Sequence record: PX667085.1
DNA from: a phage
DNA length: 64,000 nucleotides
Reading direction: 5' to 3' (one strand)
Shown here: piece after piece, positions 10,692-47,758 of the stretch
Layout: the number at the start of each line of letters is the position of its first letter
Numbering within the stretch: the stretch's first letter is position 1
The notes under the pieces: model-generated
Told to the model about the DNA's origin: nothing
The model's input: only the letters and a program-made list of their open reading frames with translations
The model's database searches: none
Program-made: the position numbers and the translations under genes

Positions 10692-10726
10692 TAACATGGC
10701 AGGGAAGCCATTTATAAGGAGGATTG

Positions 10727-11227
10727 ATGGGTGTAGCAACAATAGCTATCGGAAGAAGCGGTATAGATGAGTGCTATCAAACGGGACTCGTAAAACCTAA
10801 CGAATTTCGTCAAATTTGTGTAAACCATATTGAAAAAGAGATTGCTCTTACTTTAGAGAATATGACCCTCCGAGATAAACTGGAAATGTTTAAATGTTGG
10901 TGTCTAGGAGAAGATTGGCTTTTAAACCATTTTCAAGAACTTTCTGATAGTAAAGAAAGCTTGTTTGATTGTATAATAGGAATAGCTGGCTCCGATCCTA
11001 GCCTTCTGCACATAACAGAAGAAGAGGCGAAGTTACTGTTCTTAAGTAATTTGTTTAATAAGAAAGCACTGCTTGTTCGTGATTGCAGTGATCTTCTTAA
11101 TAACCCGCTCGCAACGTCTGATCAAATTTTTGTTGACAAAGAGACACTACGTGCGATAGAATACATCTGCAAATACGTGAATGGCGGGAAAGCGGTTCTT
11201 AAAACATTAACAGAGGAGGAAGAATAG
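10727..11227 (+). CDS. hypothetical protein
   Basis: ORF with RBS AAGGAGGA. Confidence 0.55.
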   Translation: MGVATIAIGRSGIDECYQTGLVKPNEFRQICVNHIEKEIALTLENMTLRDKLEMFKCWCLGEDWLLNHFQELSDSKESLFDCIIGIAGSDPSLLHITEEEAKLLFLSNLFNKKALLVRDCSDLLNNPLATSDQIFVDKETLRAIEYICKYVNGGKAVLKTLTEEEE

Positions 11228-11919
11228 TGACGACAATTATTGCAACCAAAAATAAGATTTTGAGTGACGGTAAGGTAACTTTTGGTGGACGTGTAGATTC
11301 TATTAATTTCAAAAAGGTCCGAAAAATTGGAGATTACCTTGTAGGTGGTGCTGGTCGTCTGACATCCGTGCTTTCTTTCTTTCAATGGTTTGAACAAAAT
11401 CTACAGTGCGAAGCAGCACGTGATGCTGTCCCTGGTTTGATGATTCACTCTGATCCAGATAAAGAAGATGAAGAGTTTATTGCACTTGTTGTTCATCCAG
11501 ACGGACGTATTTTCCTGCACGAAGGTAACAACCCAACACGTGCATATCCGATTGATGAAGAATATTATGCAGTAGGGAGTGGGTCAGATTTTGCTTTAGC
11601 TGCTCTTGATGCAGGGGCAACACCAGAACAGGCTATGGAAGTAGCTAAAAAGCGAGATGCTTTTTCTGGTGGTGAAACATTTATTGAAGAACAAGACGAG
11701 ATTATTGAATTAACAGATGATGATTTAGAAAACTTCTCCAAAGAAGAATTGATCAATCTTTTGAAATTCGGTAATCCCTACGGTGAAGAAGAACCTCGTA
11801 ACGTGGCAGGTAACGAGGCGGATACTGAAGAAAAATCTGTTGCAGAAAACAACTTGACTTCTAAATCTGAAAATATTAATCTCGTAAATGTGGCGGATTT
11901 CGAAGAAACCGCTATTTAA
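11227..11919 (+). CDS. HslV/proteasome-like Ntn-hydrolase with acidic C-terminal tail
   Basis: Begins M-TTIIATKN (Thr right after Met), GGAGR and YAVGSGSDFALAAL resemble HslV; GTG start after GGAGGAAGAA. Confidence 0.5.
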   Translation: MTTIIATKNKILSDGKVTFGGRVDSINFKKVRKIGDYLVGGAGRLTSVLSFFQWFEQNLQCEAARDAVPGLMIHSDPDKEDEEFIALVVHPDGRIFLHEGNNPTRAYPIDEEYYAVGSGSDFALAALDAGATPEQAMEVAKKRDAFSGGETFIEEQDEIIELTDDDLENFSKEELINLLKFGNPYGEEEPRNVAGNEADTEEKSVAENNLTSKSENINLVNVADFEETAI

Positions 11920-11925
11920 CAAACT

Positions 11926-11946
11926 GCCCCTTCGGGGGCATTTCTT
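11926..11946 (+). terminator. intrinsic terminator
   Basis: GCCCCTTCGGGGGC hairpin then ATTTCTT. Confidence 0.6.
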
Positions 11947-11964
11947 AAACATAGGAGATTAATA

Positions 11965-12399
11965 ATGTTACAAGTTCCTGCTAAGTTTGTTGAAGGCGCT
12001 ATCCACTCTTACCGTCAAACATGTAAGAGAGCAAGAAACTGTTTAGATGGTCTGGTGGCAAAAACCTATACTGTTGAAAAGAAAAAACGTTGGTTTGGCA
12101 AAGATGTTTACGAAGTTAATATTTTTGGTGAACATAAACTAAACCACGATACTCCTGAAAACATGTTAGAAATATTTCTAAGAGATGATAAAATATCTCC
12201 TATGGATTACCAACTTTTAAAATTTTATGATTCTTCTTTGGCTATTGATAAGTTTGTTGAAGATATTCTGTCTAGAAAAACAGATAAAAACACTTATCCT
12301 CTAGAGGCTGATCAAATAGGATTATTAAACGAGATTTCATCTTTTAAAGAGTTGGATAATATTACAAAAGAGGAGATTTTAGATGGCATTAGATTATGA
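11965..12399 (+). CDS. hypothetical protein
   Basis: 144-aa ORF. Confidence 0.55.
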   Translation: MLQVPAKFVEGAIHSYRQTCKRARNCLDGLVAKTYTVEKKKRWFGKDVYEVNIFGEHKLNHDTPENMLEIFLRDDKISPMDYQLLKFYDSSLAIDKFVEDILSRKTDKNTYPLEADQIGLLNEISSFKELDNITKEEILDGIRL

Positions 12400-12892
12400 T
12401 CGCCCAACGAGCGATTATTATCCGACACCGCAAAAAGCAATCAATAGTTTGTTTAGTGTTATAGATTTCAAAAATCTAAAGGAAGAAGGTTGGGTTTTTG
12501 CAGAACCTTGCAGAGGTGAAGCTGAAGCGATTTATCGCCATTTTCCTGAAGGTTCAGAATATTGCGAACTTGAAGAAGGTAAAGATTATTTTAGTCATGA
12601 ATGGGAAAATCGTCCCGACATTATAATTACAAACCCTCCATTTAAGTTAGCAATGGAGTTCTTGGAAAAGAGCTTAAAAGAGGCGGATGTTTGTATTTAT
12701 CTTCTTCGGTTGGGCTTCTTGGAGTCAAAGAAACGACGAGAGTTCCATCAAAAGAATCCACCAACAAACCTTATAGTCCTTTCAGAACGGCCTTCGTTTG
12801 TTGCAGGTGGAACAGATAAGACAGCATACGCTTGGTATGTATACGACCCAAAGAATCGTTTGGGCCTCTCTCAACCATTTTATTTTGTTTAA
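12383..12892 (+). CDS. putative DNA N6-adenine methyltransferase (small, NPPF motif)
   Basis: IIITNPPF catalytic motif IV of amino-methyltransferases. Confidence 0.55.
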   Translation: MALDYDRPTSDYYPTPQKAINSLFSVIDFKNLKEEGWVFAEPCRGEAEAIYRHFPEGSEYCELEEGKDYFSHEWENRPDIIITNPPFKLAMEFLEKSLKEADVCIYLLRLGFLESKKRREFHQKNPPTNLIVLSERPSFVAGGTDKTAYAWYVYDPKNRLGLSQPFYFV

Positions 12893-12904
12893 GGAGTGTG
12901 AACT

Positions 12905-13141
12905 ATGGGTAAACTAATTATGACAGTGGCTATTGATTTTGATGAAGTAGATGAAAGCCTCAACCTTTCACTTTCTACTGACGTAGATGGCGAAATGGAT
13001 AATATTGAAGCAGCTACTGCTCTTTTCTTCAAAAAAGCCATTGAAGTTTATGCCGAACATGCTGCAAATCAGGCAGTAGATTACGGTGGTATCGTGCGAG
13101 CTTTAGTTCACTCTACCGAGGGCAATGACTGGGAAGATTAA
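12905..13141 (+). CDS. hypothetical protein
   Basis: 78-aa acidic ORF. Confidence 0.45.
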   Translation: MGKLIMTVAIDFDEVDESLNLSLSTDVDGEMDNIEAATALFFKKAIEVYAEHAANQAVDYGGIVRALVHSTEGNDWED

Positions 13142-13344
13142 TGGCTTACAATTATTACTGCATTTATGCACATGAAAAGAAAAAAGGTGACACTGGGACT
13201 AACGTTTATGCGGAGTCCGAATCTCATGCAAAAGAGATTGGTGCTATCCTTTTATCACGCTGGACTGGAAATAATTACAGTGCAGAAGATATGTTTGCAG
13301 AAGTGGATTCTAGTATCCAAGAAGACAACATAACAACTACGTGA
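13141..13344 (+). CDS. hypothetical protein
   Basis: 67-aa ORF. Confidence 0.45.
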   Translation: MAYNYYCIYAHEKKKGDTGTNVYAESESHAKEIGAILLSRWTGNNYSAEDMFAEVDSSIQEDNITTT

Positions 13345-13353
13345 TATACTTAT

Positions 13354-13377
13354 ACTCCCTTTTCGGAGGGAGTATTT
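13354..13377 (+). terminator. intrinsic terminator
   Basis: ACTCCCTTTTCGGAGGGAGT hairpin then ATTTT. Confidence 0.65.
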
Positions 13378-13389
13378 TAAGGAGGGATT

Positions 13390-13584
13390 ATGCAGAGCGG
13401 AGAAGAACTTTTAGAGAAACAATTCTCAACGCGTCAACAAGCTTTAAGTTATATGGTTTTTCTAAGCAATCTTGATGTGAATGAGATACTTTTACGGCGC
13501 GAAGGTAATTTCTGGAGCGTTAAATATCATGCAACAAGGTCTGTAATCTACCTGGAAGAGGCGGAATTCTCTTTGGTAGAATGA
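13390..13584 (+). CDS. hypothetical protein
   Basis: 64-aa ORF, RBS AAGGAGGG. Confidence 0.5.
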   Translation: MQSGEELLEKQFSTRQQALSYMVFLSNLDVNEILLRREGNFWSVKYHATRSVIYLEEAEFSLVE

Positions 13585-13598
13585 TCCGAGGAGTAGTT

Positions 13599-14171
13599 AT
13601 GCGTTCAACTTTCACTGGCAAAATAAATGCTGGTTTGATTTTTACAGCAGTAAGCATTCTTAGCAAAAAGTTTAAAGTTGTTAACTTACCTGTGTGTGTC
13701 GATTTCGATCATGTTTTTGATCCTTCGAACCCCACTCGTTGCATAGTAAGGAGTAATGTTGAAAACCCAACAGAAAATCTTTTTTATGTAACAAAACCAT
13801 CTCAAAGCATACTTAACCAGGTTGAGGCGAAATTGATACCTAACGGTAAATATTACTCCTTTTTACCTTGTAAGTCGGTTGAAGTAGAGAATAGCAATAC
13901 TTTCGCTAATAACTTGTCTGTATTCGTTTTCTTTGTTTCACAGGAAGACGAAACAGATGAAATGGTAGCAACAGTGAGATCACTTTATGACTCTTTAGGG
14001 GTTGTTTATAGTCAACAAGTGTGCGAAAATAATAAAGCCTGTGTAGATTTCATTATCAACGGTATTTGTGTTTGTAGAGTAGAATCTTTTTGGCTGCACG
14101 ATACATATGTGACTGTAGCAGAGGTTATATCTGAACCAAGATTTAGTCATGCGGTTTCGTTAATAATTTGA
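13599..14171 (+). CDS. hypothetical protein
   Basis: ORF; internal ATG with RBS GAGGAG chosen. Confidence 0.5.
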   Translation: MRSTFTGKINAGLIFTAVSILSKKFKVVNLPVCVDFDHVFDPSNPTRCIVRSNVENPTENLFYVTKPSQSILNQVEAKLIPNGKYYSFLPCKSVEVENSNTFANNLSVFVFFVSQEDETDEMVATVRSLYDSLGVVYSQQVCENNKACVDFIINGICVCRVESFWLHDTYVTVAEVISEPRFSHAVSLII

Positions 14172-14181
14172 GGAGGAAGGA

Positions 14182-14511
14182 ATGGAAATTACTACAGAAC
14201 AAGCCCTTATCGACGAGGGTCGTAAAATCTTAGAAAAGTATTTAGGGGAGATTCATAAAACCCCTGGCTATTTGGGTTGGAGAATTGTTGAAGCTGTAGA
14301 TTTCCTTCCTCGTAACAGTAAAAACGTCGAAATGCGATCTCTTTTCTTATTAGTAAAGGTGGATGGGGATACACCTTTTAAAGATGCCGCAGAACATATT
14401 GAAAAAGTTGAAGAGAAAGCTTATGCAGAATTTGCCGATCTTGTTTTAGAACAAGAGATTGAAGGAAAGGTGAATATTTTTATTTTCTTAGATTTTGAGG
14501 AGGATAAGTGA
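14182..14511 (+). CDS. hypothetical protein
   Basis: 109-aa ORF, RBS GAGGAGGAAGG. Confidence 0.5.
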   Translation: MEITTEQALIDEGRKILEKYLGEIHKTPGYLGWRIVEAVDFLPRNSKNVEMRSLFLLVKVDGDTPFKDAAEHIEKVEEKAYAEFADLVLEQEIEGKVNIFIFLDFEEDK

Positions 14512-15251
14512 TCATACACAAAGAAATTACTGTTAAAAGCGATCAAGATCTTTTTATAATTGGAGATCTACACGGTTGTTATAATTTGTATGAAAAAGGA
14601 AAGGCAAAGTTAGGTATCCGAGATACAGATGTGGTTGTATCTCTAGGAGATCTTACTGACCGTGGAAAGCAAAACTTTCGTTGTGTTTTAGAATTTACTC
14701 GTAAACACAATCGCTACGCTATTCGTGGCAATCATGAAGACATGATGATTAAAGGTATGCTGGAAGGAGATCGTAGCTACTACGAGTGTTGGTATCAAAA
14801 TGGAGGATATACGGTCTTTGAAGAATGTGGTGAAGAAGGAGCTACAGCCTTAGCAATGATGACAGAAGATTTACCTGTTGTTCTCATTGTTAACTACAGA
14901 GGCATGAAACTTGCGTTTATTCATGGTGGGTATCCATCTTCTTTGGAATATCTCCCTGTAACAGATATTCCAGAATACATTTCGAAGATGACAAAAACAC
15001 AGGAAAACCGTTTTGCTGAAGCACTTATGTGGGACAGAGATATGGTAGACTGTGCTAAAGAGGGAATGAAACTTCCTGTTGTGATGGGTGTGGATTATGT
15101 GTTTCATGGACACTCTTATGTAAAAACACCTATTATCAATGCGAATCGTGTTTATATGGATACTGGATCTGTGTTCAATAATAACTTAACATTTGCTTAT
15201 TTCGATATGGACGGTGGTCTTCAATTTTATTCAACTCTTGAGGAGGATTAA
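14508..15251 (+). CDS. Ser/Thr protein phosphatase (calcineurin-like metallophosphoesterase)
   Basis: GDLHG, GDLTDRG and GNHE motifs in order. Confidence 0.85.
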   Translation: MIIHKEITVKSDQDLFIIGDLHGCYNLYEKGKAKLGIRDTDVVVSLGDLTDRGKQNFRCVLEFTRKHNRYAIRGNHEDMMIKGMLEGDRSYYECWYQNGGYTVFEECGEEGATALAMMTEDLPVVLIVNYRGMKLAFIHGGYPSSLEYLPVTDIPEYISKMTKTQENRFAEALMWDRDMVDCAKEGMKLPVVMGVDYVFHGHSYVKTPIINANRVYMDTGSVFNNNLTFAYFDMDGGLQFYSTLEED

Positions 15252-15559
15252 TGTATAAGATTACAATTATTCAAAGTGTAGGTAATATCCGTAAAGAAGT
15301 TATCTTAGAAACAGAAGATGTTAATCTTGTTCGTGAGATTGTTCTTAAGGAAGATAACCTGCAAGCTGTAGAATCAGATGCACCGAATCTTATGGTGGAT
15401 CAAGAATATTCTGAACTTCGTCGTATTTTTGAAGAGATTCAGAAGAAAGAAACACAACCGACCATAAAACCTTTTGGTCCTTATGATCCGAGCAATCCTA
15501 GCAGTCCTTGGATCATGAGAAATACGGAACCGTATACACCTTTTGAAATTACTTGTTGA
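15251..15559 (+). CDS. hypothetical protein
   Basis: 102-aa ORF. Confidence 0.5.
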   Translation: MYKITIIQSVGNIRKEVILETEDVNLVREIVLKEDNLQAVESDAPNLMVDQEYSELRRIFEEIQKKETQPTIKPFGPYDPSNPSSPWIMRNTEPYTPFEITC

Positions 15560-15566
15560 GGTGATT

Positions 15567-16148
15567 ATGGCAGAACTGTTCTACACGGGAGTTGGAAGTA
15601 GAGACATATCCGAAGAAGAGTGGGCTTTGATGGTAGGCATAGGGAAATGGCTTTCAAACCTTGGGTTTAAATTAAGGTCTGGGAAGGCAGAGGGTAGTGA
15701 TTCTGCTTTTGAAACAGGTGTCCAAGAGTCTGAAAATCCTACTAACAAGGAGATTTATGTTCCTTGGGAAAATTTCAAAGGTAATCAGATTCCAGGGGAT
15801 GTTATTGTTCTTGCAAAACCAGATACAATGAACTATGCTATCTCTGTGCAATGGATCAAAGATGTTCACCCAGCCTATGAAAAGCTTAAGCAGGGTGCTA
15901 GAAAATTGCACCAACGTAATGTGCATCAAGTGTTAGGTAGAGATTTGGAGAATCCTGCTCCATCATGTTTCTTGTTGGCTTGTGCTAATACTGATAAACA
16001 TGGAGATGCAAAAGGTGGAACAGCTACGGCTTGGAAGATAGCTAAAGCCAATAATGTTCCTTGTTTAAACATTCGTGGGAAAACAAAACAAGAGATTTAC
16101 GATTTTCTACGACCTTTGGTAATGAGGGCAATAACAAGTGATTCCTAA
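15567..16148 (+). CDS. DprA/Smf-like (SLOG Rossmann-fold) protein
   Basis: YTGVGSRDIS ... LRSGKAEGSDSAFETG pattern resembles DprA core; tentative. Confidence 0.4.
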   Translation: MAELFYTGVGSRDISEEEWALMVGIGKWLSNLGFKLRSGKAEGSDSAFETGVQESENPTNKEIYVPWENFKGNQIPGDVIVLAKPDTMNYAISVQWIKDVHPAYEKLKQGARKLHQRNVHQVLGRDLENPAPSCFLLACANTDKHGDAKGGTATAWKIAKANNVPCLNIRGKTKQEIYDFLRPLVMRAITSDS

Positions 16149-16650
16149 ACGTAAACGTGGTGAACAAAGAACAAACTTGGCAGAAATCTTAGATTACAAC
16201 ATGGTTAATGATGTGACAAAAGAAATTCTGCCTGTTGTAGAAGATATTCTTCAAAGAGGGTTACGATTCTGCTCGGATCGGGTGCATTTCATGTGGACAC
16301 ATAAAAGTGACTCCGCTTTGAATTTCTATCCTTTGGATTATACTCTAAACAATACAGAGATGAAAGATATCAACAAATACTTAATGGGATATAAAGATAT
16401 AACCGAAACCGTTCTTGGAGAATTGGCAGAAATCTTGGCTAACGATATCCTTAGAAATATTAATAAGGCTCTTGACAGAAGCCCAGCAGGAGTAGTAGTA
16501 TCTTTTGCTGTGCCAGATATGGTTAAATATGAGTCTACAATACCTAATAAAGCTTATGCCTTTCTTCGGAGAGACGTTCGTGGAAATGTGTTGGAGATGG
16601 AGTCAAACTACAAGATTGAGGAGGTTTTATGGCAGAGTTCGGATCAGTAA
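16138..16650 (+). CDS. hypothetical protein
   Basis: 170-aa ORF. Confidence 0.5.
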   Translation: MIPKRKRGEQRTNLAEILDYNMVNDVTKEILPVVEDILQRGLRFCSDRVHFMWTHKSDSALNFYPLDYTLNNTEMKDINKYLMGYKDITETVLGELAEILANDILRNINKALDRSPAGVVVSFAVPDMVKYESTIPNKAYAFLRRDVRGNVLEMESNYKIEEVLWQSSDQ

Positions 16651-16919
16651 CAAGTTTTGAAAGTAACTTCGTTACCGCTTGGGAAGCTTGGGATGAAATG
16701 GGTGTTGGGGAACTTTATTTTTACAATGTAACACTACGTCCAGAGTATGCTTACCTGGTACCAGAAGGAACAGTTCAAATTGGCATGTATTTGTCTTCTC
16801 AAGACGGTGTTGTTCAATTTGAGTTTTATTCTAACACAACGGACAACGAATTTACATATCGTGCATTTCATGTCAACATGTCTTTAGGAGAGGAGAAATT
16901 TTATGACGACCAAGTTTAA
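16629..16919 (+). CDS. hypothetical protein
   Basis: 96-aa ORF. Confidence 0.5.
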   Translation: MAEFGSVTSFESNFVTAWEAWDEMGVGELYFYNVTLRPEYAYLVPEGTVQIGMYLSSQDGVVQFEFYSNTTDNEFTYRAFHVNMSLGEEKFYDDQV

Positions 16920-17895: not shown

Positions 17896-17918
17896 AACCC
17901 GCTTCGGCGGGTTTTTTA
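17896..17918 (+). terminator. intrinsic terminator
   Basis: AACCCGCTTCGGCGGGTT hairpin plus TTTTTT. Confidence 0.75.
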
Positions 17919-22629: not shown

Positions 22630-22652
22630 GAAAAAACCCGCCGAAGCGGGTT
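22630..22652 (-). terminator. intrinsic terminator (minus strand)
   Basis: AACCCGCCGAAGCGGGTT hairpin with U-tract on minus strand. Confidence 0.6.
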
Positions 22653-26576: not shown

Positions 26577-26780
26577 TTACTCATTTCTACCTCCTTCGAT
26601 GCTTTGTGCCGTACCATCCCAAGCCATTAGAATATTTGCCAATAGTTCACGAGGCTCTTTAAACCAAACTTCCATTTCATCAAGAATCTCGTCCGTGTCG
26701 TAAGTATAACCTGGAACACCAAGTTCGCATTTCTTAAGATAGCTTTCTAACCAGCGGTGATAATTCTTAACCCCATTCAT
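26577..26780 (-). CDS. hypothetical protein
   Basis: 67-aa ORF. Confidence 0.4.
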   Translation of the reverse strand: MNGVKNYHRWLESYLKKCELGVPGYTYDTDEILDEMEVWFKEPRELLANILMAWDGTAQSIEGGRNE

Positions 26781-27107
26781 ACTGTGCTACCTTTTCTTTT
26801 ACCCAATCTACACGATCTTTATCATAATGTTGAGTGCCAAGGAAAAGACCATTGTGGAAACTTTCCTCACCGAAAGGATAAATTGGATCTAAACCATCTT
26901 CTTCAAACAACATTTTTAATCGATTTGATGTAGATTTCTTAGTTTCTGAGTTGTAGTTTGTGGTTATAAGCCAATCTTCCAAACAACGACACAAACCTTG
27001 ACGAGAATCCCAAGGAAAAACACAATCTCCGACAGGAGCTTGTTCCGCCCATTTCAACCAGCCTTTAAAAAAGTTATACAGTATATAGTCTTCAGTGTAA
27101 TACATTA
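26767..27107 (-). CDS. paralog-family protein A (GLC / PFx / WVKEK motifs)
   Basis: Shares FxxW...GLCxCL...YPF...DRVDWVKEKV with six other ORFs; start at ATG after AAGGAGGAG. Confidence 0.55.
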
Positions 27108-27156
27108 TCTCCTCCTTTACGTATACAATAACACCCCGAAGAACGGGGTGCAACTG

Positions 27157-27772: not shown

Positions 27773-28045
27773 TCACCCCCAAGAAATATTTATATATCTT
27801 ACAATGTTTGCACTGTCTAAAGCCATGTTTGCACCACACCCACGCTCGCGCCAGTAACTAACAATACCTTCACAGATGCTCTCTTGTATCTTCTTATCAC
27901 TTGGCATTTCTAGTATAAGACTTGGGTTGTGGATGTTTATGTTATAATATCCTTCCTCTGCGGCTTGAGCTACCAATTTACTTACTTTTTCAAAGTACGG
28001 GGAATTAGTGGCATCTGCCATTGTTTTTAAGGTTTGTCTATCCAT
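27773..28045 (-). CDS. hypothetical protein
   Basis: 90-aa ORF. Confidence 0.5.
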   Translation of the reverse strand: MDRQTLKTMADATNSPYFEKVSKLVAQAAEEGYYNINIHNPSLILEMPSDKKIQESICEGIVSYWRERGCGANMALDSANIVRYINISWG

Positions 28046-28410
28046 TATTCTGCCTCATCATAGAAGAAATCCAACTCTTGTTCCAGTTGTTTAACTCGAT
28101 CCTTAACCCACTGTACACGTTTTTCATTAAACATGCAACGTTTTTCCTTACACTCTTGCTCAAAAGATTTTGCTGTGTTAAATGGGAAAGTTGTATCTAA
28201 GCCAGCGTTTTCAAAACTGGCTAATTGCATACCATAAACAGAATATGCTAGAGAATGCTCTGCCCGAAATTCATCACTTATATACATACGCAGACCTCGG
28301 CATAAGCCAACATCAGCGTAACCACTTTCTCTTGGAAAGAGACGGAGGTGTTCTAACCAATTATTATAGAAATCTAAAAGAATCCTCTTACACTTCAAAT
28401 CGATTGTCAT
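28045..28410 (-). CDS. paralog-family protein B (GLC / PFN / WVKDR motifs)
   Basis: LLDFYNNWL...VGLCRGL...FPFN...KRVQWVKDRV; start at ATG after AGGAG. Confidence 0.55.
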   Translation of the reverse strand: MTIDLKCKRILLDFYNNWLEHLRLFPRESGYADVGLCRGLRMYISDEFRAEHSLAYSVYGMQLASFENAGLDTTFPFNTAKSFEQECKEKRCMFNEKRVQWVKDRVKQLEQELDFFYDEAE

Positions 28411-28810
28411 AAAAAGTTTCTCCTTCATCAAACAAGTTGGCAAGATTGTTCACGGCAATCTGGGTGGAAAGAAGACAACTGTTTGCAGACACATAAGCAC
28501 GAGCTATTTTGTAAACATAAACTTTCGTATTACAATTGTCTAGGATCGGAAGACTTTCGTCGATAGCATCTATAACACTAAACATCACATCTAAAACTTT
28601 AATGGTGAGTGTTGTATTTGTATCTTCGTAACCTTTTTCAATCAGACCTGAATAGAAGGTATAGTCCTCAACAGTTCGTCGTTTAAATTGGCGCATAAAA
28701 TCGGAACCATCTGTAGCAGAATTGAACAAATTTTCAAAAAATACGTCCCATCCTGCAAAAAGGGCTGATAGCATGATTAAGTGATCTATAGATTCATTTT
28801 CTTGTTTCAT
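28388..28810 (-). CDS. hypothetical protein
   Basis: 140-aa ORF. Confidence 0.5.
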   Translation of the reverse strand: MKQENESIDHLIMLSALFAGWDVFFENLFNSATDGSDFMRQFKRRTVEDYTFYSGLIEKGYEDTNTTLTIKVLDVMFSVIDAIDESLPILDNCNTKVYVYKIARAYVSANSCLLSTQIAVNNLANLFDEGETFYDNRFEV

Positions 28811-28818: not shown

Positions 28819-29490
28819 CTATTTAATGTTCAGTCTGGCACACAAACGAGAAACAGTCTTAGCATCCCATTTACCACCACGTGCTGTTGCTATTTTCTTA
28901 CTATTGAATTTTTCAGCAATAGTTTTGTAAGGTGTATTTAAATCTCTAAGGATCTCCAAACGTTCACGAAATGTCTCTGCAAAAGCGTCTGCTTTAACAG
29001 AGTTGTATTCCATTTTTCCTTTTCTACGTGCAGCGGCAGTTTTAGGATTAGCACTGCCTAATAAAACACCTTTGCTTTTTGCTACAGCAAGACCCTTTTT
29101 AATACGATCAGCAATACCTCTAACTTCTTGTTCAGCCAGAACAGATAGAAGCTGTATAACCATTTTATCTGCGTCTGGCATGATGGCTATCTTAACATCG
29201 ATCATCTCCAGAAGAGTTGCTACGGAGGCGTTGTTACGACCCAAGCGGTCAACTTTAGCTACCAATAAAGTTGCTCCGGTAGCTTTACACATTTCAACCG
29301 CTTTGACCAGTTCTTTACGTTGCTTCCAATCGCCCTTACCCGAATAGTATTCAGAAAATTGACCAATAACTTCAGCATCAGGCACAGAGTCTAAGAAGTA
29401 ACGGATATCGTTCTCTTGGCTCTCCATACCATATTGTGCCTCACCTTTTTTCTGTTTAGAAAGACGACTGTAAACAACAAACTTTTTCAT
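28819..29490 (-). CDS. small serine recombinase (resolvase/invertase family) with C-terminal HTH
   Basis: VYSRLSKQ (catalytic Ser region), LLVAKVDRLGRN, C-terminal basic HTH-like segment; ATG after GGAGTGG. Confidence 0.7.
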   Translation of the reverse strand: MKKFVVYSRLSKQKKGEAQYGMESQENDIRYFLDSVPDAEVIGQFSEYYSGKGDWKQRKELVKAVEMCKATGATLLVAKVDRLGRNNASVATLLEMIDVKIAIMPDADKMVIQLLSVLAEQEVRGIADRIKKGLAVAKSKGVLLGSANPKTAAARRKGKMEYNSVKADAFAETFRERLEILRDLNTPYKTIAEKFNSKKIATARGGKWDAKTVSRLCARLNIK

Positions 29491-29519
29491 AACCACTCCT
29501 AAACTATTACTGTATTCTC

Positions 29520-29548
29520 ACTTTACAAAACGAATAAACACTTGTCAA
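29520..29548 (-). promoter_or_regulatory. sigma70-type promoter TTGACA-17-TAAAGT for recombinase gene
   Basis: Hexamers read on minus strand; no hairpin cassette here. Confidence 0.5.
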
Positions 29549-29560
29549 GGTATTTATTAT

Positions 29561-31026: not shown

Positions 31027-31353
31027 TCAACCCATTATTTCTTCTGCTACACGTTCTTTTACCCAGTTCACACGATCCACATTCAAATGACAACGGCTTT
31101 TTTCCGCTTCTAAGGTGTACTTTCCAAAATTACTGTTGAAAGGCAACACCATAACCAAACCTTTGAGGTAGAACTGCTCATGCATTTCATCCAGTACAGG
31201 TTCGTATCGTTCGCTTTCTCCCATGTCGTAAAAATCATAGAGGTTCGTGCACAAACCTGTGCAACGGGTGAACGGTTCACCTTCAGGAGCACCAGCTTCC
31301 AACCATGCCAAATACGTGCGGTAAAATGTTAATAGTTCTTCGCTCATTTCCAC
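31027..31353 (-). CDS. paralog-family protein C
   Basis: FYRTYLAWL...GLCTNL...LPFN...CHLNVDRVNWVKERV. Confidence 0.6.
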   Translation of the reverse strand: MEMSEELLTFYRTYLAWLEAGAPEGEPFTRCTGLCTNLYDFYDMGESERYEPVLDEMHEQFYLKGLVMVLPFNSNFGKYTLEAEKSRCHLNVDRVNWVKERVAEEIMG

Positions 31354-31558: not shown

Positions 31559-31786
31559 TTATTCCTCCATCTCAAACCATTCAGGGAACACTTTATGGAA
31601 TACACGGGTTGTTTCCAAAAGGAATTCCAATTCTTTTTCCAGATTTGCGTTCCAATCGTGCACTTTAACATTGATTGCCAATGCACTTGCACGGCGACTT
31701 AATTCTTGACAGATTGGATCACGCAGAACTATTGAGTCGTAAAACTGACAAACAGCCTCAAGTTCATACCAGTTATAATCCGACAT
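31559..31786 (-). CDS. hypothetical protein
   Basis: 75-aa ORF. Confidence 0.45.
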   Translation of the reverse strand: MSDYNWYELEAVCQFYDSIVLRDPICQELSRRASALAINVKVHDWNANLEKELEFLLETTRVFHKVFPEWFEMEE

Positions 31787-32112
31787 TATTCATCCTCCTC
31801 TGCAATACGATCTCTTACCCAATTAATCCTGTCCACGTTCAGGTGACATACCTCTGCATCTGATTCTAAGACATATGCATCGTAGTTCTCATTGAAAGGG
31901 AGTTCTTGACTCAACCCTTTGTAGTAAAACTGTGAGTGCATTTCGTCTGACAAGGTTGTTATAAGGAGATTGTAGCCATCTGCGTGCACATAATCGAACA
32001 AGTTGGCACACAAACCGCAATCTCGCCGAAAAGGTTTACCATCAGGAGCACCAACATCAATCCATGCTAGATAAATTTTATAAAACTCCATCAACCCTGT
32101 GCTTGTTTTCAT
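31786..32112 (-). CDS. paralog-family protein D
   Basis: FYKIYLAWI...GLCANL...LPFN...CHLNVDRINWVRDRI; closest to C. Confidence 0.6.
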   Translation of the reverse strand: MKTSTGLMEFYKIYLAWIDVGAPDGKPFRRDCGLCANLFDYVHADGYNLLITTLSDEMHSQFYYKGLSQELPFNENYDAYVLESDAEVCHLNVDRINWVRDRIAEEDE

Positions 32113-40537: not shown

Positions 40538-40559
40538 GACAATCTCCTCTCATCGTTAG

Positions 40560-42030
40560 CCATCTTTCATGGCAATCATCAATCACCAACATCATACGAT
40601 CAATCTTCGGCAATTACAATCGAATTATCATAGGGGATTCCTATCAATTATCCTATATATACCGATTATTTTTGACACCCCATTCTTGTATAAAAAGTAA
40701 CCCAAAATATCTACGGGGAGAGATTATTTCGACACACCCTGTTTCATGGCAATCACGGCAAGAATATCTAATAGAATCAATATGATATGGCAAAAATCAT
40801 GGCGTATACGTAAGAAGTGCTTAACGCGAATTTTCGGGCCGTCAGGTCCACGCAGCGACAATTCCCAAATATCATGCGAATGAGAATAATTATCATTCGT
40901 ATTCAATGACTTATGCAAGGCTCATGCCAACGTAGCGACAAGGTGGGCCACTCGATTATAAATCACACAAACACTTATTTATCAATGGCTTGGCAACTTC
41001 ATCATATGACGGAACAATGTCAACTAATCCCGCTCATGACAAGCAGACTATTATTTATATGAGAATGATTATTATTTAAACGTTTATTAACATAAAAACT
41101 AAAATAAATCAAGATTATTCTGATTTTATTTACGTTTAAGAGAAGATGCTCAACATCCTACCGGATCGCCGTTGGCAATCCTCGGATATTTACGCCCCCA
41201 TGATTAAGGTTTATCTCTTTCTTAGTGCTCAACATTCCCGCCCGTGGCGGTAACATTTCGCCCCCAAAATTATTGACTTTTATTCTATTATGTGCATAGT
41301 GTGCAATGTATCGGAATGATGATAATCATCCTCCCATTGCCCCCAATAATTATTGCCATGCTAATGATTTCATATTGTAACCATTACAATGATTATTGTT
41401 ATTGCGCTAATGTTATGATCTTGGTAATTACATATAATGCTAATAATAAGCCAGCGCAATAAGTGTAAGCGTCATTACGCTTGCAATTATTGCAAGCTAC
41501 GCAGTAACAAGAAATAACCATCACCGATGGTTATGATTGTTGGGGTGTAGTTGGCTTATTATTAGCTCGCTATGTGTCCGGCATAGCGTGCTAATGATGA
41601 TCCTGGGAATGATTCGTTTTGTAATGATTTCATTCAGTCACTATTATGGCAATAGTTATTATTTTAATGGTTTCGTTTGTTATTGTTCGTTAGTTGGTTG
41701 TTTTGTCGTGTTATCGTTATCTTGCTTAGTATTCATCATGGTTTGATTGTTTGTCGTTATCAATCATCTTGCTATTATTCCTTTGATTATGATTAGTTTG
41801 CTTATTGTTTTAGGTTGTTGGTTAGTTAGTTGTTGCGAACTGTTATCAACATTATAGTTATGCGCTTATATTGCATATATAATCATGTATAGATGATAAT
41901 GGTTATCATTGCACTAGAAAGGAGGTAAAAGGGTGTTTTTGATGGTTTGTTGTTGGTTGTTGATCGATTTTAACCGCTATAAATGGCTCTCTAACAGCCT
42001 GTTACCCTGGGAGGTATGGTTATTCGTTTA
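40560..42030. repeat. 1.4-kb non-coding palindrome- and repeat-rich region (candidate origin/regulatory hub)
   Basis: No convincing ORF; GAGAATrATTATyATT at 40882 and 41061, ATGATAATCAT-type palindromes, T/G-rich short repeats. Confidence 0.5.
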
Positions 42031-42111
42031 ATGGTTGATTAGCTCGATACCGCGATTTATTCAATTTTGTTCTGTGTCGGTTTTTCATAGGGGAAAGCTA
42101 TCAACATTGTT

Positions 42112-42154
42112 CGGGCAAAAAGAAAGGGCGCTTGGTGCGCCCCTTGTTTTGTTG
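42112..42154. terminator. bidirectional intrinsic terminator
   Basis: GGGCGCTTGGTGCGCCCC hairpin flanked by A- and T-tracts. Confidence 0.65.
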
Positions 42155-42158
42155 TCAA

Positions 42159-42578
42159 TTATAACGCTTCATAGATTGAGTAGATCCGGTTTGCCAGGTC
42201 ATTACGAAAGCGGAATTTTTCATCACGTTTGATCATCAGATCCTTAAAACCGCATTCTTTCAGTGCTTCATTAACTTTATGGCGGCAAACGTTCATATTA
42301 TCCTGCGCGTCACCAATAAACTTATTGCTGTGATGCATTGCTTTGATCTCTTCCTCTAATACCAGGGCAACTACACGGATCGGATCAAGCTGATATGCGG
42401 TAACATCCATGCGGCATTGTAAACGGCTTTTAACATCGTTTACCGGATATACTGCAACCTCTTCCCCGTCAACGTTCACGATAACCAATTTACCATCGAT
42501 TTCGAAGCCTTTGGCGGCGCTACCGTGACAAAAAGCGTTATCGAAGGAGTAAGCTGGATTATTTGATTTAATGTTCAT
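42159..42578 (-). CDS. hypothetical protein
   Basis: 139-aa ORF; promoter TTGACA within CCCCTATTGACAGGGG upstream. Confidence 0.55.
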   Translation of the reverse strand: MNIKSNNPAYSFDNAFCHGSAAKGFEIDGKLVIVNVDGEEVAVYPVNDVKSRLQCRMDVTAYQLDPIRVVALVLEEEIKAMHHSNKFIGDAQDNMNVCRHKVNEALKECGFKDLMIKRDEKFRFRNDLANRIYSIYEAL

Positions 42579-43398: not shown

Positions 43399-43416
43399 GA
43401 TATGACTCCTAAATCA

Positions 43417-43475
43417 GGCGGGAAACATTCCCGCCCTACGTGATAAATGATAATGTAAGCGTGATCCGGTGTCAA
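43417..43475 (-). promoter_or_regulatory. PeSL-like cassette: TTGACA-17-TATCAT promoter plus 5' stem-loop GGCGGGAA-ACA-TTCCCGCC
   Basis: -35 at 43470-43475, -10 at 43447-43452, hairpin at 43417-43435, RBS and ATG at 43398. Confidence 0.6.
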
Positions 43476-43787
43476 TAGGTAGGATTGTAAAGATTTGATA
43501 GTTTATCTCTTTGATGTTTTGTTGTTTGATAGATGTTAGCTATCAATATATAGCGGGGTCGTCCGGTGATTATCTTCCCCTGCTCCCAGGTGCCGCCCGT
43601 TCAATAAGTATAACAAAAAACAGGACAAAAACAAGCCCTGTTTATTTATCTTAAAACCAGTTGCCAACCGTTTCCAATAGGTCACTGACTACCAGGACAA
43701 CATTAATCAGCACATATTCGACCAGGAAGGGAATAAGCGCCAGCGTTGCTACTACGATCCCCATTGTGATGATTACCTTTCTCATGG

Positions 43788-44072
43788 TTAGCGGCTTACG
43801 TAAGCTTTACCGTTTACGGTCATCGGTATGGCCTCAAGGTCTGGATCTTCCTTAAGGTCGCGTGCAAGCTCACCGCAGCGGATACCCTCGAATCCGTAGT
43901 ACTCTGTTGTGCCGTCCTGGAAAGTTTTAGCGGCAAGGCATAGGCGATAATTAACGCCGATCCGGTTTATTGCGTTGATATCGGTTAACGTGATGGATTC
44001 AGGCAAATCATTAGCCATTACAGGCGTGTTAATACCAACAACCAGGGCAACTACTGCGATCATCTTTTTCAT
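43788..44072 (-). CDS. secreted/periplasmic protein (signal peptide)
   Basis: MKKMIAVVALVVGINTPVMA N-terminus. Confidence 0.5.
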   Translation of the reverse strand: MKKMIAVVALVVGINTPVMANDLPESITLTDINAINRIGVNYRLCLAAKTFQDGTTEYYGFEGIRCGELARDLKEDPDLEAIPMTVNGKAYVSR

Positions 44073-44127
44073 GTGTCTATCCTCTTCCTATTGCGTTTAA
44101 TGGGGGCGTTACCGCCCTGCTTATGGT

Positions 44128-44364
44128 TTATTGATTGATGTTATAATGAAAATTATTTTCTTCAATAGCTTTTAAAATAAAAGCCGTGATCGCTTTCGTG
44201 TCTACTTGTTCGAACGTATCAGAATAGCACCAATAATAATCATCCCCTACTTTCGGCGGGTAAACCTGGACAAGGAGATCGCCACCTGGTTGATCTATAA
44301 GCTCAACATGCAAGCCGGATGATTCAGCGGTTTTAACGGCGTTTAATACTGTTGCAATACTCAT
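44128..44364 (-). CDS. hypothetical protein
   Basis: 78-aa ORF; hairpin GGGGCG-TTG-CCGCCCC upstream. Confidence 0.5.
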   Translation of the reverse strand: MSIATVLNAVKTAESSGLHVELIDQPGGDLLVQVYPPKVGDDYYWCYSDTFEQVDTKAITAFILKAIEENNFHYNINQ

Positions 44365-44408
44365 AATCTTTCCCTTTCTGATGTGGGGCGTTGCCGCCCC
44401 TTTGTTGA

Positions 44409-44708
44409 TTAGATCGCTGTTTCCAGTAGTTCGGCTAACGTCTTACCGCCTGATAGTTGGTCTAACGTTTGCTCTTCTGGCAAGAAATTAGCTGATATCA
44501 AACCGACTTGATTCCCTTTGTGCCAATTAGCTTGACGGATGATTCCATCCTTTAAGGATTTTACCGCCATTGTGCAACCGTCGCCAAATGATTCATTTTT
44601 ATGATCCATCACTTCGTAAGCGCCCAGTTTGCTGCTGTTAGGCACCATTAACGCGAATACATCACCAACAACCAGTTTTTCTACGGTAACAATAGCGATA
44701 GTTTCCAT
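44409..44708 (-). CDS. hypothetical protein
   Basis: 99-aa ORF preceded by PeSL-like cassette. Confidence 0.5.
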   Translation of the reverse strand: METIAIVTVEKLVVGDVFALMVPNSSKLGAYEVMDHKNESFGDGCTMAVKSLKDGIIRQANWHKGNQVGLISANFLPEEQTLDQLSGGKTLAELLETAI

Positions 44709-44726
44709 TTTACTTTCCTCATTATT

Positions 44727-44783
44727 GGCGGCACCATTGCCGCCCTACGTGGTAAATATTAGCACACTGGCGATCTGTGTCAA
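44727..44783 (-). promoter_or_regulatory. PeSL-like cassette (TTGACA-16-TAATAT, hairpin GGCGGCA-CCAT-TGCCGCC)
   Basis: Hairpin at 44727-44744, -35 at 44778-44783. Confidence 0.6.
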
Positions 44784-44789
44784 TACTTT

Positions 44790-45176
44790 TTATTCAATAT
44801 AAATCAAATTATCTTCACCAATGTAAGCCGACACGTTCGGCATAAACTTAGCTGCATTGGTTAGGCGGTTGGCTGTGTTAGTGGTGTATATTTCAGGGCG
44901 ATCCCAAAAGCCTACGCCGTGACCGTTACGGGTAAAATGTAAATCATTCCCGATCTGGTTGGCTGTTGCGCCGTCGCTCATTGCCTCAGAGATAGCGGCA
45001 AGATTAGCATTAATAAAGGCTGTTACATCCTGGGCGATCCGTTCGTCCGCGCTAGGAGAAAAATCATAATCGTCTAAGTTATCAATAAAATTACCTTCAT
45101 GATCCCTTGCTGATTCAGCAAAAATAAAGGCTTCTTTATAGCCGTTGATGATTTCAATAATGATTTCTGTTTTCAT
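44790..45176 (-). CDS. hypothetical protein
   Basis: 128-aa ORF. Confidence 0.5.
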   Translation of the reverse strand: MKTEIIIEIINGYKEAFIFAESARDHEGNFIDNLDDYDFSPSADERIAQDVTAFINANLAAISEAMSDGATANQIGNDLHFTRNGHGVGFWDRPEIYTTNTANRLTNAAKFMPNVSAYIGEDNLIYIE

Positions 45177-45397
45177 GCTGTACGCTCGACAATAATAATA
45201 GTTTGCGGGATCTCGTTTTCTACTACTAACAAGGCTTTTTTCTGTGTGATAGATATTTTAACACGTTGTAAAGTAGCGGTAAAATCTTTCATTTCATTAT
45301 GCGCGGATTTAGTACAATGCCAGATCTCAGGCTTACCAACTTGTAAGCCGCGTAAAAATTCCGTTTTGCCTGTTTTGTTCGTGATCATTTGTTTCAC
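45173..45397 (-). CDS. hypothetical protein
   Basis: 74-aa ORF. Confidence 0.45.
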   Translation of the reverse strand: MKQMITNKTGKTEFLRGLQVGKPEIWHCTKSAHNEMKDFTATLQRVKISITQKKALLVVENEIPQTIIIVERTA

Positions 45398-45768
45398 CTT
45401 AACCGATACCGTGGGAAGATAGGATCATATTAGCCATAGTTGCAACTACTCCAACCGATAACGCCAGGCCAACCACTGCAACCGTGAAAATTTTCTCTAA
45501 CATGATTCTACCCTCATTAATGGGCGTTGCACCATTGCCCCGCCCTACGTAATACACTTTACTAGATAACAAATTATTGTCAAGCTTTATTTTACTTCCC
45601 AAACGGAAAATTCGCTGCCTGTTGGGATCATTTTTTTAATCTTGTTTGCTGCCGCTACCAGGTCAACGGCTTGTACTGTAATAATATAACCAATTGTCGA
45701 GGCTGTTGCGTTGAAAGTTTTCATTATATTGCCCTTTAATACAGGCGGGATTAATCCCGCCTTTTTGA

Positions 45769-45939
45769 TTACTCTTCATTATCGCCGTTATAGTATTCAA
45801 TGCCGTTTTCATCGGTTACGGTGATGTTAACGCCACCGATAGCAACACGATCACGGGCAAACGTCATAGCTTCATTTAAATCTTCAGACCAAAAAATATT
45901 GTGACCTTTGCGCGATACATAAAACATAGTCGGGATCAT
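45769..45939 (-). CDS. hypothetical small protein (57 aa)
   Basis: Table ORF 45769..46023 trimmed to ATG downstream of hairpin 45963-45983. Confidence 0.45.
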   Translation of the reverse strand: MIPTMFYVSRKGHNIFWSEDLNEAMTFARDRVAIGGVNITVTDENGIEYYNGDNEE

Positions 45940-46024
45940 GATTTGTTTCTCTTCTGTTATGAGCGGTGGACCATTCCGCCGCCCTATGTGGTAAACTTTA
46001 CTACGTTGTTTGCCTGCTGTCAAA

Positions 46025-46309
46025 CTATTTTTTAATGTTTTGCCCTACAAAATCGATCACTTCCTTAAGCTGTCTCTCTGTCATGATCGTACCTGGTAAC
46101 TCTTCTTTAATTTCTTCCGGTAAATAGATATTACCGCGCCAGGTTAACAAACAACCGTTTTGATCTTCGCAGATAGAATAAGAAAACATCCACTCGCAAT
46201 CATTTTCAAGCTCCCAAAAACACAAAAAGTCTTCTTTCCCTAAGTTTTCAACGGTTAAACATAATCCGCGACGTGCTGCATAATTAGTTAGGCTTTTTGT
46301 GATTTTCAT
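46025..46309 (-). CDS. hypothetical protein
   Basis: Table ORF trimmed to MKITKSL start below hairpin at 46331-46346. Confidence 0.5.
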   Translation of the reverse strand: MKITKSLTNYAARRGLCLTVENLGKEDFLCFWELENDCEWMFSYSICEDQNGCLLTWRGNIYLPEEIKEELPGTIMTERQLKEVIDFVGQNIKK

Positions 46310-46507
46310 GATTTTTCTCTCTTCTTGTGAGCGGCACCATTGCCGCCCTACAAGATACATATTACCAGATTAAGCGGACTTGTCAAACTATTTTTTCTTT
46401 TTCTTTGCTTTCAATCGTCTAAGGTTACGGCTGGACTTATTGCGCAAGGCGCTTAGATCGTCGTACCCTTTCCATGCTTGCATATCTTTCGGATTCATGT
46501 TATCCCC

Positions 46508-46669
46508 TTACTTGTTAGCCGGATCATATACCAGGACCGCGCCGCTTGCTTTCACGCTTTCCGCTTCATAGTTGCGCAGATCGTTTTCTGTAAGATTGAG
46601 CGCGATCACTTCCTCGATCTCAACGCCAGCGGCAAGGGCGATCTCTTTGATAATATCTGTTGTTTTCAT
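46508..46669 (-). CDS. hypothetical small protein
   Basis: ATG (MKTTDII) after AAGGTG; table start lies in upstream gene. Confidence 0.4.
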   Translation of the reverse strand: MKTTDIIKEIALAAGVEIEEVIALNLTENDLRNYEAESVKASGAVLVYDPANK

Positions 46670-46897
46670 GGTGTGCACCTTATAAGATGATTGATAAGAT
46701 AGTGACAACGAAAGCGATTATACTGATGGCAAATGTCATCTTTTTACCTTCGGATACTGCCGGATTTTCTACCGTGTATTCTACTGTGTACTTGCTCATC
46801 GTGTAATCCTCTCGTTTGCTTTGGGAACTATTCCCGCCGCCCTATGAATTAAATATACACTATCTCAAAATGATTGCAAGCCTTTTTCTAAATTACT

Positions 46898-47182
46898 TTA
46901 TTCAGTAAACAAACCATCATTTACAACGGCGGCGATGATCTCCCGTGCCATTGATTCAGGGAAAGGGGCGCTATAGTCCTGGCTTGTCTCATCGGTATCG
47001 GTGATCCAATGATAAGCTAACGAGTAAAAGCCTTTACTAACTGTTTTCAGTGAGATGATGATCACTCGGTCAAGCTTATTGGTGAATGTTGCCGTTAATG
47101 TGTTACCCTCCTGCGTCATGTTGGACAAGTAAGCGAGATCATTAATCAGGGAAAACATTAGCACGGTGTTAGCTTTACTCAT
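46898..47182 (-). CDS. hypothetical protein
   Basis: Trimmed to MSKANTV start below hairpin 47203-47218. Confidence 0.5.
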   Translation of the reverse strand: MSKANTVLMFSLINDLAYLSNMTQEGNTLTATFTNKLDRVIIISLKTVSKGFYSLAYHWITDTDETSQDYSAPFPESMAREIIAAVVNDGLFTE

Positions 47183-47253
47183 GATTGCATCCTCAAAGGG
47201 GCGCGGCACTATTGCCGCCCTACACGATAACTATAACACAATGTAAAACAGGG

Positions 47254-47460
47254 TCAACCTTTATTTTTCCACGGTGTCAGCTTGTTAATCATTGGTGATA
47301 AATAGCGTTTACCAACGTAAAACAGTACGCCAACTGATGCAACGGCGGCGACCTCATGCATAGCCGACGGGAAACGGGTATCATAATAAGATCCAATAAT
47401 AGCAATAGCGGCAACGGCTGCAACGTCGATAATGATTTTCTCTTGTTTTGCGGTGATCAT
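47254..47460 (-). CDS. small membrane protein
   Basis: IIIDVAAVAAIAIIGSYY hydrophobic segment; hairpin 47483-47497 upstream. Confidence 0.5.
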   Translation of the reverse strand: MITAKQEKIIIDVAAVAAIAIIGSYYDTRFPSAMHEVAAVASVGVLFYVGKRYLSPMINKLTPWKNKG

Positions 47461-47545
47461 AGTATTTACCTTTTTGTATGGTGGGGAACTATTCCCCGCC
47501 TGATGTAATACAGTTTAACAGGTCCGGTTATGGTGTCAACCACTT

Positions 47546-47731: not shown

Positions 47732-47758
47732 TTTTGTTTATCCTCTACATGTAAAAAG

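Follow-up and report, generated by a model that had tools for sequence, protein, structure and literature searches.

The locus analysed here raises a key question: why does a lytic phage keep a site-specific recombinase of its own? The gene lies on the minus strand of a 64,000-nucleotide stretch of phage DNA (record PX667085.1; the whole stretch is called the window below), a region sharing 96-99% identity with 68 Phapecoctavirus phage records in GenBank (subfamily Stephanstirmvirinae), including phAPEC8, ESCO5, ESCO13, Schickermooser and Mt1B1_P17. The source type is a phAPEC8-like lytic Escherichia coli myovirus of ~150 kb with short terminal repeats. The initial annotation, made from the sequence, described a small serine recombinase of the resolvase/invertase type that could drive a DNA inversion switch, resolve replication or recombination intermediates, or be a remnant of a mobile element. 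The comparisons presented here point to an apparently active enzyme kept as a core gene by the subfamily, for which a resolvase-type reaction that deletes or resolves phage DNA soon after infection is, tentatively, ranked first. The features of the gene are listed below, with their basis in brackets.

28819-29490, minus strand: serine recombinase coding sequence, 223 amino acids plus stop codon (open reading frame list, sequence, Pfam PF00239, identical protein in 60+ phage records)
29050-29490, minus strand: catalytic domain and alpha-E helix, residues 1-147 (44-sequence alignment, AlphaFold2 model, Foldseek)
28822-29049, minus strand: predicted C-terminal helical DNA-binding domain, residues 148-223 (weak PF07508 match, domain-wise divergence)
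29496-29500, minus strand: AGGAG ribosome-binding site, 5 nt before the ATG (read from the sequence)
29520-29548, minus strand: sigma70-type early promoter with an A/T-rich stretch upstream (scan; conservation in phage phiWec181)
29548-29543 and 29525-29520, minus strand: promoter boxes TTGACA and TAAAGT, separated by a 17-nt spacer (scan)

Is the encoded protein a complete enzyme? The reading frame, from the ATG at 29490 to the stop codon at 28821-28819, has the coordinates given by the initial annotation, and its translation contains both motifs quoted there, VYSRLSKQ at residues 6-13 and VAKVDRLGRN at residues 77-86. In classification by hidden Markov models, Pfam Resolvase (PF00239) matches residues 5-142 above its cut-off (E=5.2e-18; 66 bits vs 23.3) and is covered from position 2 to 144 of 145, while PHROG 125, 'DNA invertase', matches with E=2.6e-32. 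The catalytic Ser/Arg constellation is present throughout an alignment of 44 homologues reaching down to 30% identity, in which Y7, R9, S11, Q25, R58, D81, R82 and R85 are invariant; Y7, R9, S11, R58, D81, R82 and R85 correspond in alignment to Y6, R8, S10, R45, D67, R68 and R71 of gamma-delta resolvase. The catalytic roles of the gamma-delta residues are taken from PMC2794168 and from general background on the family. The AlphaFold2 model (predicted local distance difference test score 88) consists of an alpha/beta catalytic core, a long helix at residues 109-139 corresponding to alpha-E, and five more C-terminal helices within residues 149-219; Foldseek pairs it at probability 1.0 with the Sin, gamma-delta, TP901-1, Bxb1, phiC31 and SPbeta recombinases. 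The gene thus encodes a full-length small serine recombinase with a complete catalytic constellation, apparently an active enzyme, and the identification of a catalytically intact enzyme of this kind is fully borne out by Pfam, alignment, model and fold comparison.

The C-terminal part is less conventional. Matches to sequences in the PDB end at residue 146-156 (Tn3 and gamma-delta resolvases, E ~1e-6 over residues 45-146; Gin, E=0.006), and no HTH_7 domain is matched at E<=1; the sole C-terminal match is to positions 19-48 of 102 of PF07508 'Recombinase' at residues 187-216, below the cut-off (E=0.003). The start of PF07508 is matched by 23 of the 44 family members and HTH_62, 'Recombinase-like HTH', by 2 of them. 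No NCBIfam model reaches its cut-off, the Mpi-type master invertase model scoring 22.6 bits vs a cut-off of 272, and there is no match to IS607; the N-terminal position of the catalytic domain is also the order opposite to that of IS607 transposases, which have an N-terminal MerR-like helix-turn-helix and a C-terminal catalytic domain. At 223 amino acids the protein does not have the full large-serine-recombinase architecture (recombinase domain, zinc ribbon and coiled-coil, usually >400 amino acids). The C-terminal domain, as judged from these matches, is not the helix-turn-helix of Hin or gamma-delta; its likeness is to the first part of the 'recombinase domain' found in large serine recombinases. 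On account of this domain the designation 'resolvase/invertase type' is only partly right. The tail is, as had been noted, basic and helical.

This architecture is widespread. A search of 1.84 billion cluster representatives returned 6,026 matches at E<=1e-3, of which 2,542 reach E<=1e-10; among those listed most are 215-250 amino acids long and collinear with the query over residues 1-220. A conserved C-terminal motif, RG..W....V..L, characterises the subfamily, of which the window protein is a full-length member. By sequence, then, it belongs to a large serine-recombinase subfamily whose members have roughly 215-250 amino acids, with a recombinase-domain-like C-terminal helix-turn-helix, and we know of no characterised member.

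Comparison with familiar systems yields partial likenesses. With Tn3/gamma-delta resolvase and Sin the window protein shares the catalytic fold, all catalytic residues, a long alpha-E helix and a length of ~200 amino acids, and its plasmid relatives (see below) have a multimer-resolution-type layout; unlike them, it has a multi-helical C-terminal domain of ~75 amino acids in place of the 40-residue HTH_7, its sequence similarity to them is weak (the matches at E ~1e-6 noted above), and no res-like array adjoins the gene. Like Hin, Gin, Cin and Pin (Mu, P1, e14) it is a phage-encoded small serine recombinase, but its match to Gin is poor, no invertible segment is adjacent, and the phage is strictly lytic. 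The longest Foldseek alignments, ~250 columns, are to large serine integrases (Bxb1 and SPbeta), extending past the catalytic domain into helices like those at the start of PF07508; unlike these integrases (Bxb1, phiC31, SPbeta, TP901-1; 450-600 amino acids), the protein lacks the zinc ribbon, the coiled-coil and the rest of the recombinase domain, and shows no sign of integration.

The next question is whether the gene is a regular component of these phages or an occasional passenger. Searches with tblastn found a homologue in 163 phage records: 63 with at least 99% amino-acid identity and 2 at 80-90%, followed by phi92-like Justusliebigvirus members at ~57%, Klebsiella phages at 55%, and distant copies in Vibrio phages of ~130 kb, a few ICP1 isolates, and Bacteroides and Parabacteroides phages. 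A neighbouring DprA-like core gene is found in 65 records at >=95% identity and in 69 at 60-80%, so that within Phapecoctavirus the counts are equal (65 for the recombinase at >=80% vs 65 for the DprA-like gene at >=95%); in the other Stephanstirmvirinae the counts, not tallied record by record, are consistent with universal presence. The recombinase thus appears to be a single-copy core gene of Stephanstirmvirinae (~134 genomes). Among three Phapecoctavirus alleles there are 11-15 synonymous differences and 0 non-synonymous ones, which indicates strong purifying selection within the genus and argues that the gene is no decaying remnant. The suggestion of a mobile-element remnant is contradicted by this selection and by the subfamily-wide presence, even though the locus differs between genera. 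Such conservation shows that the recombinase brings some benefit to a lytic phage.

The two domains have different histories. Between the window and the related phage phiWec181 the recombinases are 95% identical over residues 1-147 and 36% over residues 148-223; the proportion of synonymous differences (pS) is 0.58 for the catalytic and 0.53 for the C-terminal domain, whereas that of non-synonymous differences (pN) is 0.044 and 0.45, respectively. The DNA-binding domain therefore diverges ~10-fold faster than the catalytic domain at equal synonymous divergence. The opposite exchange is seen in Klebsiella phage 05F01 (L019, 3462-4133), whose catalytic domain is Gin-like (E=3e-21 to PDB Gin vs 6e-3 for the window protein) and shares just 33-35% identity with the other orthologues; over the C-terminal 90 residues, however, identity reaches 56-59% with phi92 and Klebsiella phage phi1_175008, phages with the same, phi92-type locus. 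The C-terminal end ..DAKTVSRLCARLNIK is common to the window, phi92, Klebsiella phi1 and 05F01, and is not found in phiWec181 or Citrobacter phage Tr1. The 05F01 protein is thus a natural chimera of a Gin-like catalytic domain and a Stephanstirmvirinae-type C-terminal domain, and the domains evolve as separate modules. The swap implies that what is retained is serine-recombinase chemistry joined to this type of DNA-binding domain, and we read the mosaicism as selection for that chemistry brought to a particular DNA target, the target changing occasionally.

Another important question is when the enzyme is made. The promoter reported by the initial annotation is found exactly at its stated place on the minus strand and scores 10/12 to the consensus. 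Promoter-like matches around the gene are not enriched (62 found vs 52.5 expected), so the promoter rests on conservation instead. In phiWec181 a promoter AATAAATTCCTTGACA...TAAAAT occupies the equivalent position, within the end of the upstream open reading frame; homologues in phi92, Klebsiella phi1_175008, ICP1 and Vibrio 1.170.O are preceded by a TTGACA-type promoter of their own, which makes six phage lineages with such a promoter. A sigma70-like promoter lies directly upstream in each lineage examined, with two exceptions: Tr1 shows no obvious one, and in 05F01 the -35 box alone is clear. The gene belongs to an extended series of small early genes on the minus strand, most of them without a name, in which the next gene starts 8 bp past its stop codon and the 70-bp upstream spacer is occupied by the promoter. 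The recombinase is thus transcribed from an early promoter of its own, of the host (sigma70) type.

Some 20 further early promoters on the minus strand at 43400-53000 combine an A-rich stretch upstream with TTGACA and, after 17 nt, a TAAnnT-type -10 box; directly 3' of every one lies a GC-rich hairpin (GGGCGGCAATGGTGCCGCC and variants). These promoter-plus-stem-loop cassettes separate small early genes and are reminiscent of the promoter-early stem-loop cassettes of T4. As had been noted earlier, no hairpin of the GGGCGGCAATGGTGCCGCC type lies downstream of the recombinase promoter. In phi92, Klebsiella phi1_175008, 05F01 and Vibrio 1.170.O a short hairpin lies between the TTGACA box and the recombinase start codon (L003, 3960-3997; L005, 3950-3997; L018, 3450-3494; L019, that is 05F01, 3430-3461). 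In phi92, 05F01 and Vibrio 1.170.O it is part of the 5' leader, with the ribosome-binding site inside it or next to it (for example CTCCTTA..TAAGGAG and TCCTGT..ACAGGA), whereas the Klebsiella phi1 dyad spans the promoter spacer and the -10 box instead. The leader hairpins suggest translational control in these homologues; the leader in the window contains no such hairpin.

What, then, might the enzyme do? Resolution is placed first because inversion and integration are disfavoured (see below), because the nearest relatives whose context can be interpreted look resolvase-like, and because expression is early. Full-length relatives with 33-40% identity are carried by 109 plasmids. One of these, of 5.8 kb, lists genes for RepA, a ParA-like protein, hypothetical proteins and the recombinase, and a second, also of 5.8 kb, an HTH protein, hypothetical proteins and the recombinase; in both, the recombinase gene has ~650 bp of non-coding sequence upstream of it, a layout that looks like a multimer-resolution module. 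The chemistry follows with confidence from the family: a dimer of the phage enzyme would bind a dyad-symmetric site through its C-terminal domain, two bound sites would synapse into a tetramer, Ser11 would cut all four strands, and the subunits would rotate by 180 degrees before the ends are rejoined. With low confidence, we suggest that the sites would be directly repeated on phage DNA, so that the outcome would be resolution or deletion and not inversion or integration.

A pair of direct repeats is at hand in the infecting genome. Schickermooser is reported to have a 328-bp direct terminal repeat (PMC6563267), and many relatives' records start or end at window ~40897-41150, which places a physical genome end in a 1.6-kb non-coding stretch ~12 kb from the recombinase gene; from these record ends, we infer that the 328-bp terminal repeat occupies window ~40823-41150. 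The direct terminal repeats mean that the infecting genome carries a ready pair of directly repeated sequences. One possible outcome would be cyclisation of the infecting, terminally repeated genome by joining of the terminal repeats; alternatively, replicative multimers could be reduced early in infection.

Cre/loxP of phage P1 is a recombinase system able to cyclise a terminally redundant infecting genome and to resolve multimers. It provides a functional analogy only, for a job of the proposed type: Cre is a tyrosine recombinase of a temperate plasmid-prophage, unlike the window protein, and no lox-like site was identified in the window phage.

Several observations weigh against the resolution proposal. 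The first concerns the site, none having been found among the dyads near the gene and in the terminal non-coding region. The sole dyad near the gene, the imperfect AATAAATACCTTGACAAGTGTTTATT at 29533-29558, overlaps the -35 box of the promoter. It was weighed as an operator or crossover site and rejected: the window has a single copy of it, its left arm is the A/T-rich element common to all early promoters, and its right arm is not kept in phiWec181. No cognate site of the res, hix or gix type adjoins the gene. Within the terminal region, three close conserved dyads lie at 41475-41598. The arms of the first, GCTTGCAATAATTGCAAGC (41479-41497), are kept in all three phages compared, and it was rejected as a recombinase site since they are identical in phiWec181, although the DNA-binding domain of that phage has diverged. 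In phiWec181 compensatory double changes are seen in the other two, ATAACCATC..GATGGTTAT (there ATAACTATC..GATAGTTAT) and GCTATG..CATAGC (there GCTACG..CGTAGC); the latter is also compensated in Justusliebigvirus Paula (CCTATG..CATAGG). Such changes indicate hairpins and not protein sites, and on this ground these two dyads were set aside as recombinase sites; they point to conserved hairpins, either in a structured RNA or in single-stranded DNA at an origin or packaging site. The terminal-region dyads have no Rfam match. One further dyad, AAATCAAGATTATTCTGATTT (41106-41126), inside the terminal repeat, is conserved in Paula and slightly altered in phiWec181; it is a candidate site, though it could as well be a terminase recognition site.

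The second group of objections concerns function. The resolvase role of the plasmid relatives is read from their gene context. We know of no need for site-specific recombination in phages that have short terminal repeats and fill their heads from concatemers, and resolving concatemers to monomer circles could work against packaging. Other relatives lie at the edge of a prophage or of a P4-like element, a position typical of an integrase: one is next to the tail genes of a Pseudomonas aeruginosa prophage, with the first host gene 4 kb away, and another is at the border of a primase/DUF3987/GP3_package element. These differing contexts imply that the recombinase subfamily is not confined to one job.

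The non-coding region at 40540-42150 has other features. Boxes resembling ATGAGAATGATTATTATT recur in it, together with GGGGGC...ATGTTGAGCA repeats, and the two borders of the terminal repeat have similar motifs; ~41330-42230 is 89% identical in phiWec181 vs 69% for the adjacent part of the non-coding region.

A broader hypothesis, which we advance with considerable doubt, is that a strictly lytic lineage needs a site-specific recombinase within minutes of infection, either for Cre/lox-like cyclisation or processing of its own terminally repeated genome or for rearranging or cutting a specific site in the DNA of the host or a competitor. The DNA-binding module would then be the selected part, kept despite the catalytic exchange in 05F01 and diverging fast in phiWec181 and Tr1. 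If true, this would be a role for serine recombinases beyond inversion, the resolution of cointegrates or plasmid multimers, and integration.

The main rival to resolution on phage DNA places the substrate elsewhere: the recombinase would act on the host chromosome, prophages, satellites, plasmids or a co-infecting relative, in takeover, anti-defence or competition. Its early sigma70 expression within an array of small early genes, the lack of a detected partner site in the phage genome and the fast divergence of the DNA-binding domain (pN 0.45 vs 0.044) would all suit such a role, as would the patchy presence of the ICP1 homologue, which occurs in some isolates only, between gp30 and gp41 and outside the numbered ICP1 genes. 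Against these stand the universal, near-invariant occurrence of the gene within each genus, though isolates come from many hosts, and the absence of any match in PADLOC; no candidate host target is known, and no search for one was made. We consider this explanation doubtful, and it is the most serious competitor.

Could the gene instead be a self-mobile cassette, present or recent, in which a free-standing recombinase with its promoter spreads among lytic phages and is retained for its own sake? The change of locus bears directly on this question. In phi92 the gene order is lysozyme, PhoH, gp59, HslV, gp57, methyltransferase, gp55, gp54, recombinase (gp53) and gp52, followed by gp51, gp50, phosphatase, gp48, DprA, gp46 and gp45; by local tblastn synteny this block is collinear with window 9395-16895 except for the recombinase. 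The gp54 homologue of the window (13141-13344) is followed, after a short hairpin-bearing spacer, by the gp52 homologue (13390-13584).

13345-13389, plus strand: 45-bp spacer at the phi92-type recombinase locus, with hairpin ATACTCCC-TTTTCG-GGGAGTAT (tblastn synteny, sequence, open reading frames)

In phi92, Klebsiella phi1_175008 and the more divergent Klebsiella 05F01 the recombinase is flanked by gp54 and gp52, and in the window, phiWec181 and Citrobacter Tr1 it is part of the small-gene array; the window copy is ~15.5 kb from the phi92-type locus and on the opposite strand. A unit of promoter, 5' leader and open reading frame alone has thus changed locus between sister genera, and no terminal repeats or target duplications were found at its borders. 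This difference in locus, the scattered homologues in unrelated large virulent Vibrio phages and some ICP1 isolates, and the domain shuffling would fit a mobile cassette. The lack of border repeats, however, does not, nor do the single copy in every genome at a locus fixed within each genus, the strong purifying selection, and a domain order opposite to that of IS607 transposases, and we regard the cassette as unlikely.

DNA inversion, the first use proposed by the initial annotation, is largely refuted. An invertase that turns part of the phage genome round, for instance as a tail-fibre or promoter switch, would be in keeping with the PHROG 125 name, with the GenBank names 'DNA invertase' and 'gin', with the weak NCBIfam Mpi match, far under its cut-off, and with the Gin-like catalytic domain of 05F01. 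However, the 25 kb around the recombinase are collinear in 138 records, extra 'places' being record ends or repeats, and the 12-kb tail-fibre region is found at 132 places in 129 records, every listed record having it in one place, so that no orientation polymorphism was seen in the two regions tested (129-138 genomes). A composite genome of 150,872 bp (window plus Mt1B1_P17) contains just 8 inverted matches of at least 20 bp, all of them terminator hairpins, palindromes or, in two cases, chance matches at ribosome-binding sites. A consensus scan of the phage sequence for hix/gix-like sites gave chance-level results against shuffled controls, and the sequence check agrees with the earlier remark that the gene has no flanking inverted repeats. 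A 22-bp perfect inverted repeat at 17896-17917 and 22631-22652, enclosing a 4.7-kb segment, was rejected as a pair of crossover sites; it is a terminator hairpin shared on both strands (AACCCGC-TTCG-GCGGGTT followed by a T-run), with a third copy at ~56742-56761. As the C-terminal domain is not Hin/Gin-like either, we give the inversion switch very little weight.

An integrase permitting an unrecognised lysogenic or carrier state is largely refuted and highly improbable, since the distant relatives beside P. aeruginosa prophage tail genes and at the primase/DUF3987/GP3_package border, the former with no convincing inverted repeats next to it, are set against no match to the phage region in 5,426 complete E. 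coli genomes, no close copy of the recombinase in 72,556 plasmids (best match <40% identity), and the absence of reports of a repressor or any other lysogeny module in these phages (PMC5374246, PMC10269720).

How much of this was already known? The existence of the gene and the kind of enzyme were: it is 'DNA invertase' (gp053) in the phi92 record and resolvase, serine recombinase or gin elsewhere in GenBank. Most other records label it 'hypothetical protein', and 'methionine ABC transporter ATP-binding protein' on several (e.g. Mt1B1_P17, 3A1_SA_NWU) is a propagated mis-annotation. In the literature on phAPEC8, phi92, Phapecoctavirus and ICP1 we found no functional study of the recombinase. 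Added here are its core-gene status, the changed locus, the domain mosaicism with a natural catalytic swap, and the negative tests for inversion and lysogeny. Papers on these phages state that integrases or specific recombinases are absent, and phAPEC8, ESCO5/13, phi92 and relatives have repeatedly been proposed for therapy on that ground (PMC5374246, PMC10269720). The therapy-proposed phages of this group all carry a specific recombinase, and there is no sign of recombinase-mediated lysogeny, which is reassuring for such use. The enzyme is of an ordinary kind in an unexplained setting, and specialists would have no ready answer as to why a lytic subfamily keeps it; given a target site, a compact 223-residue recombinase with natural domain swaps could be of interest for recombinase engineering.

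Two minor observations concern the records and the surroundings of the gene. Records labelled Campylobacter phage A150, A110a and B15, Acinetobacter phage ABPW7 and Pseudomonas phage PsgM04F are 81-99% identical to these coliphages, and the hosts that they name may not be reliable. Genes for a paralogous family of small proteins of ~108-130 amino acids, with the motifs ..Y..WL......G.C..L and LPFN...RVNWVKERV, are scattered about the recombinase gene; minus-strand members lie at 26767-27153, 28045-28443, 31027-31353 and 31786-32112, with at least four copies in the window, at least five in phiWec181 and at least eight in Citrobacter phage Tr1.

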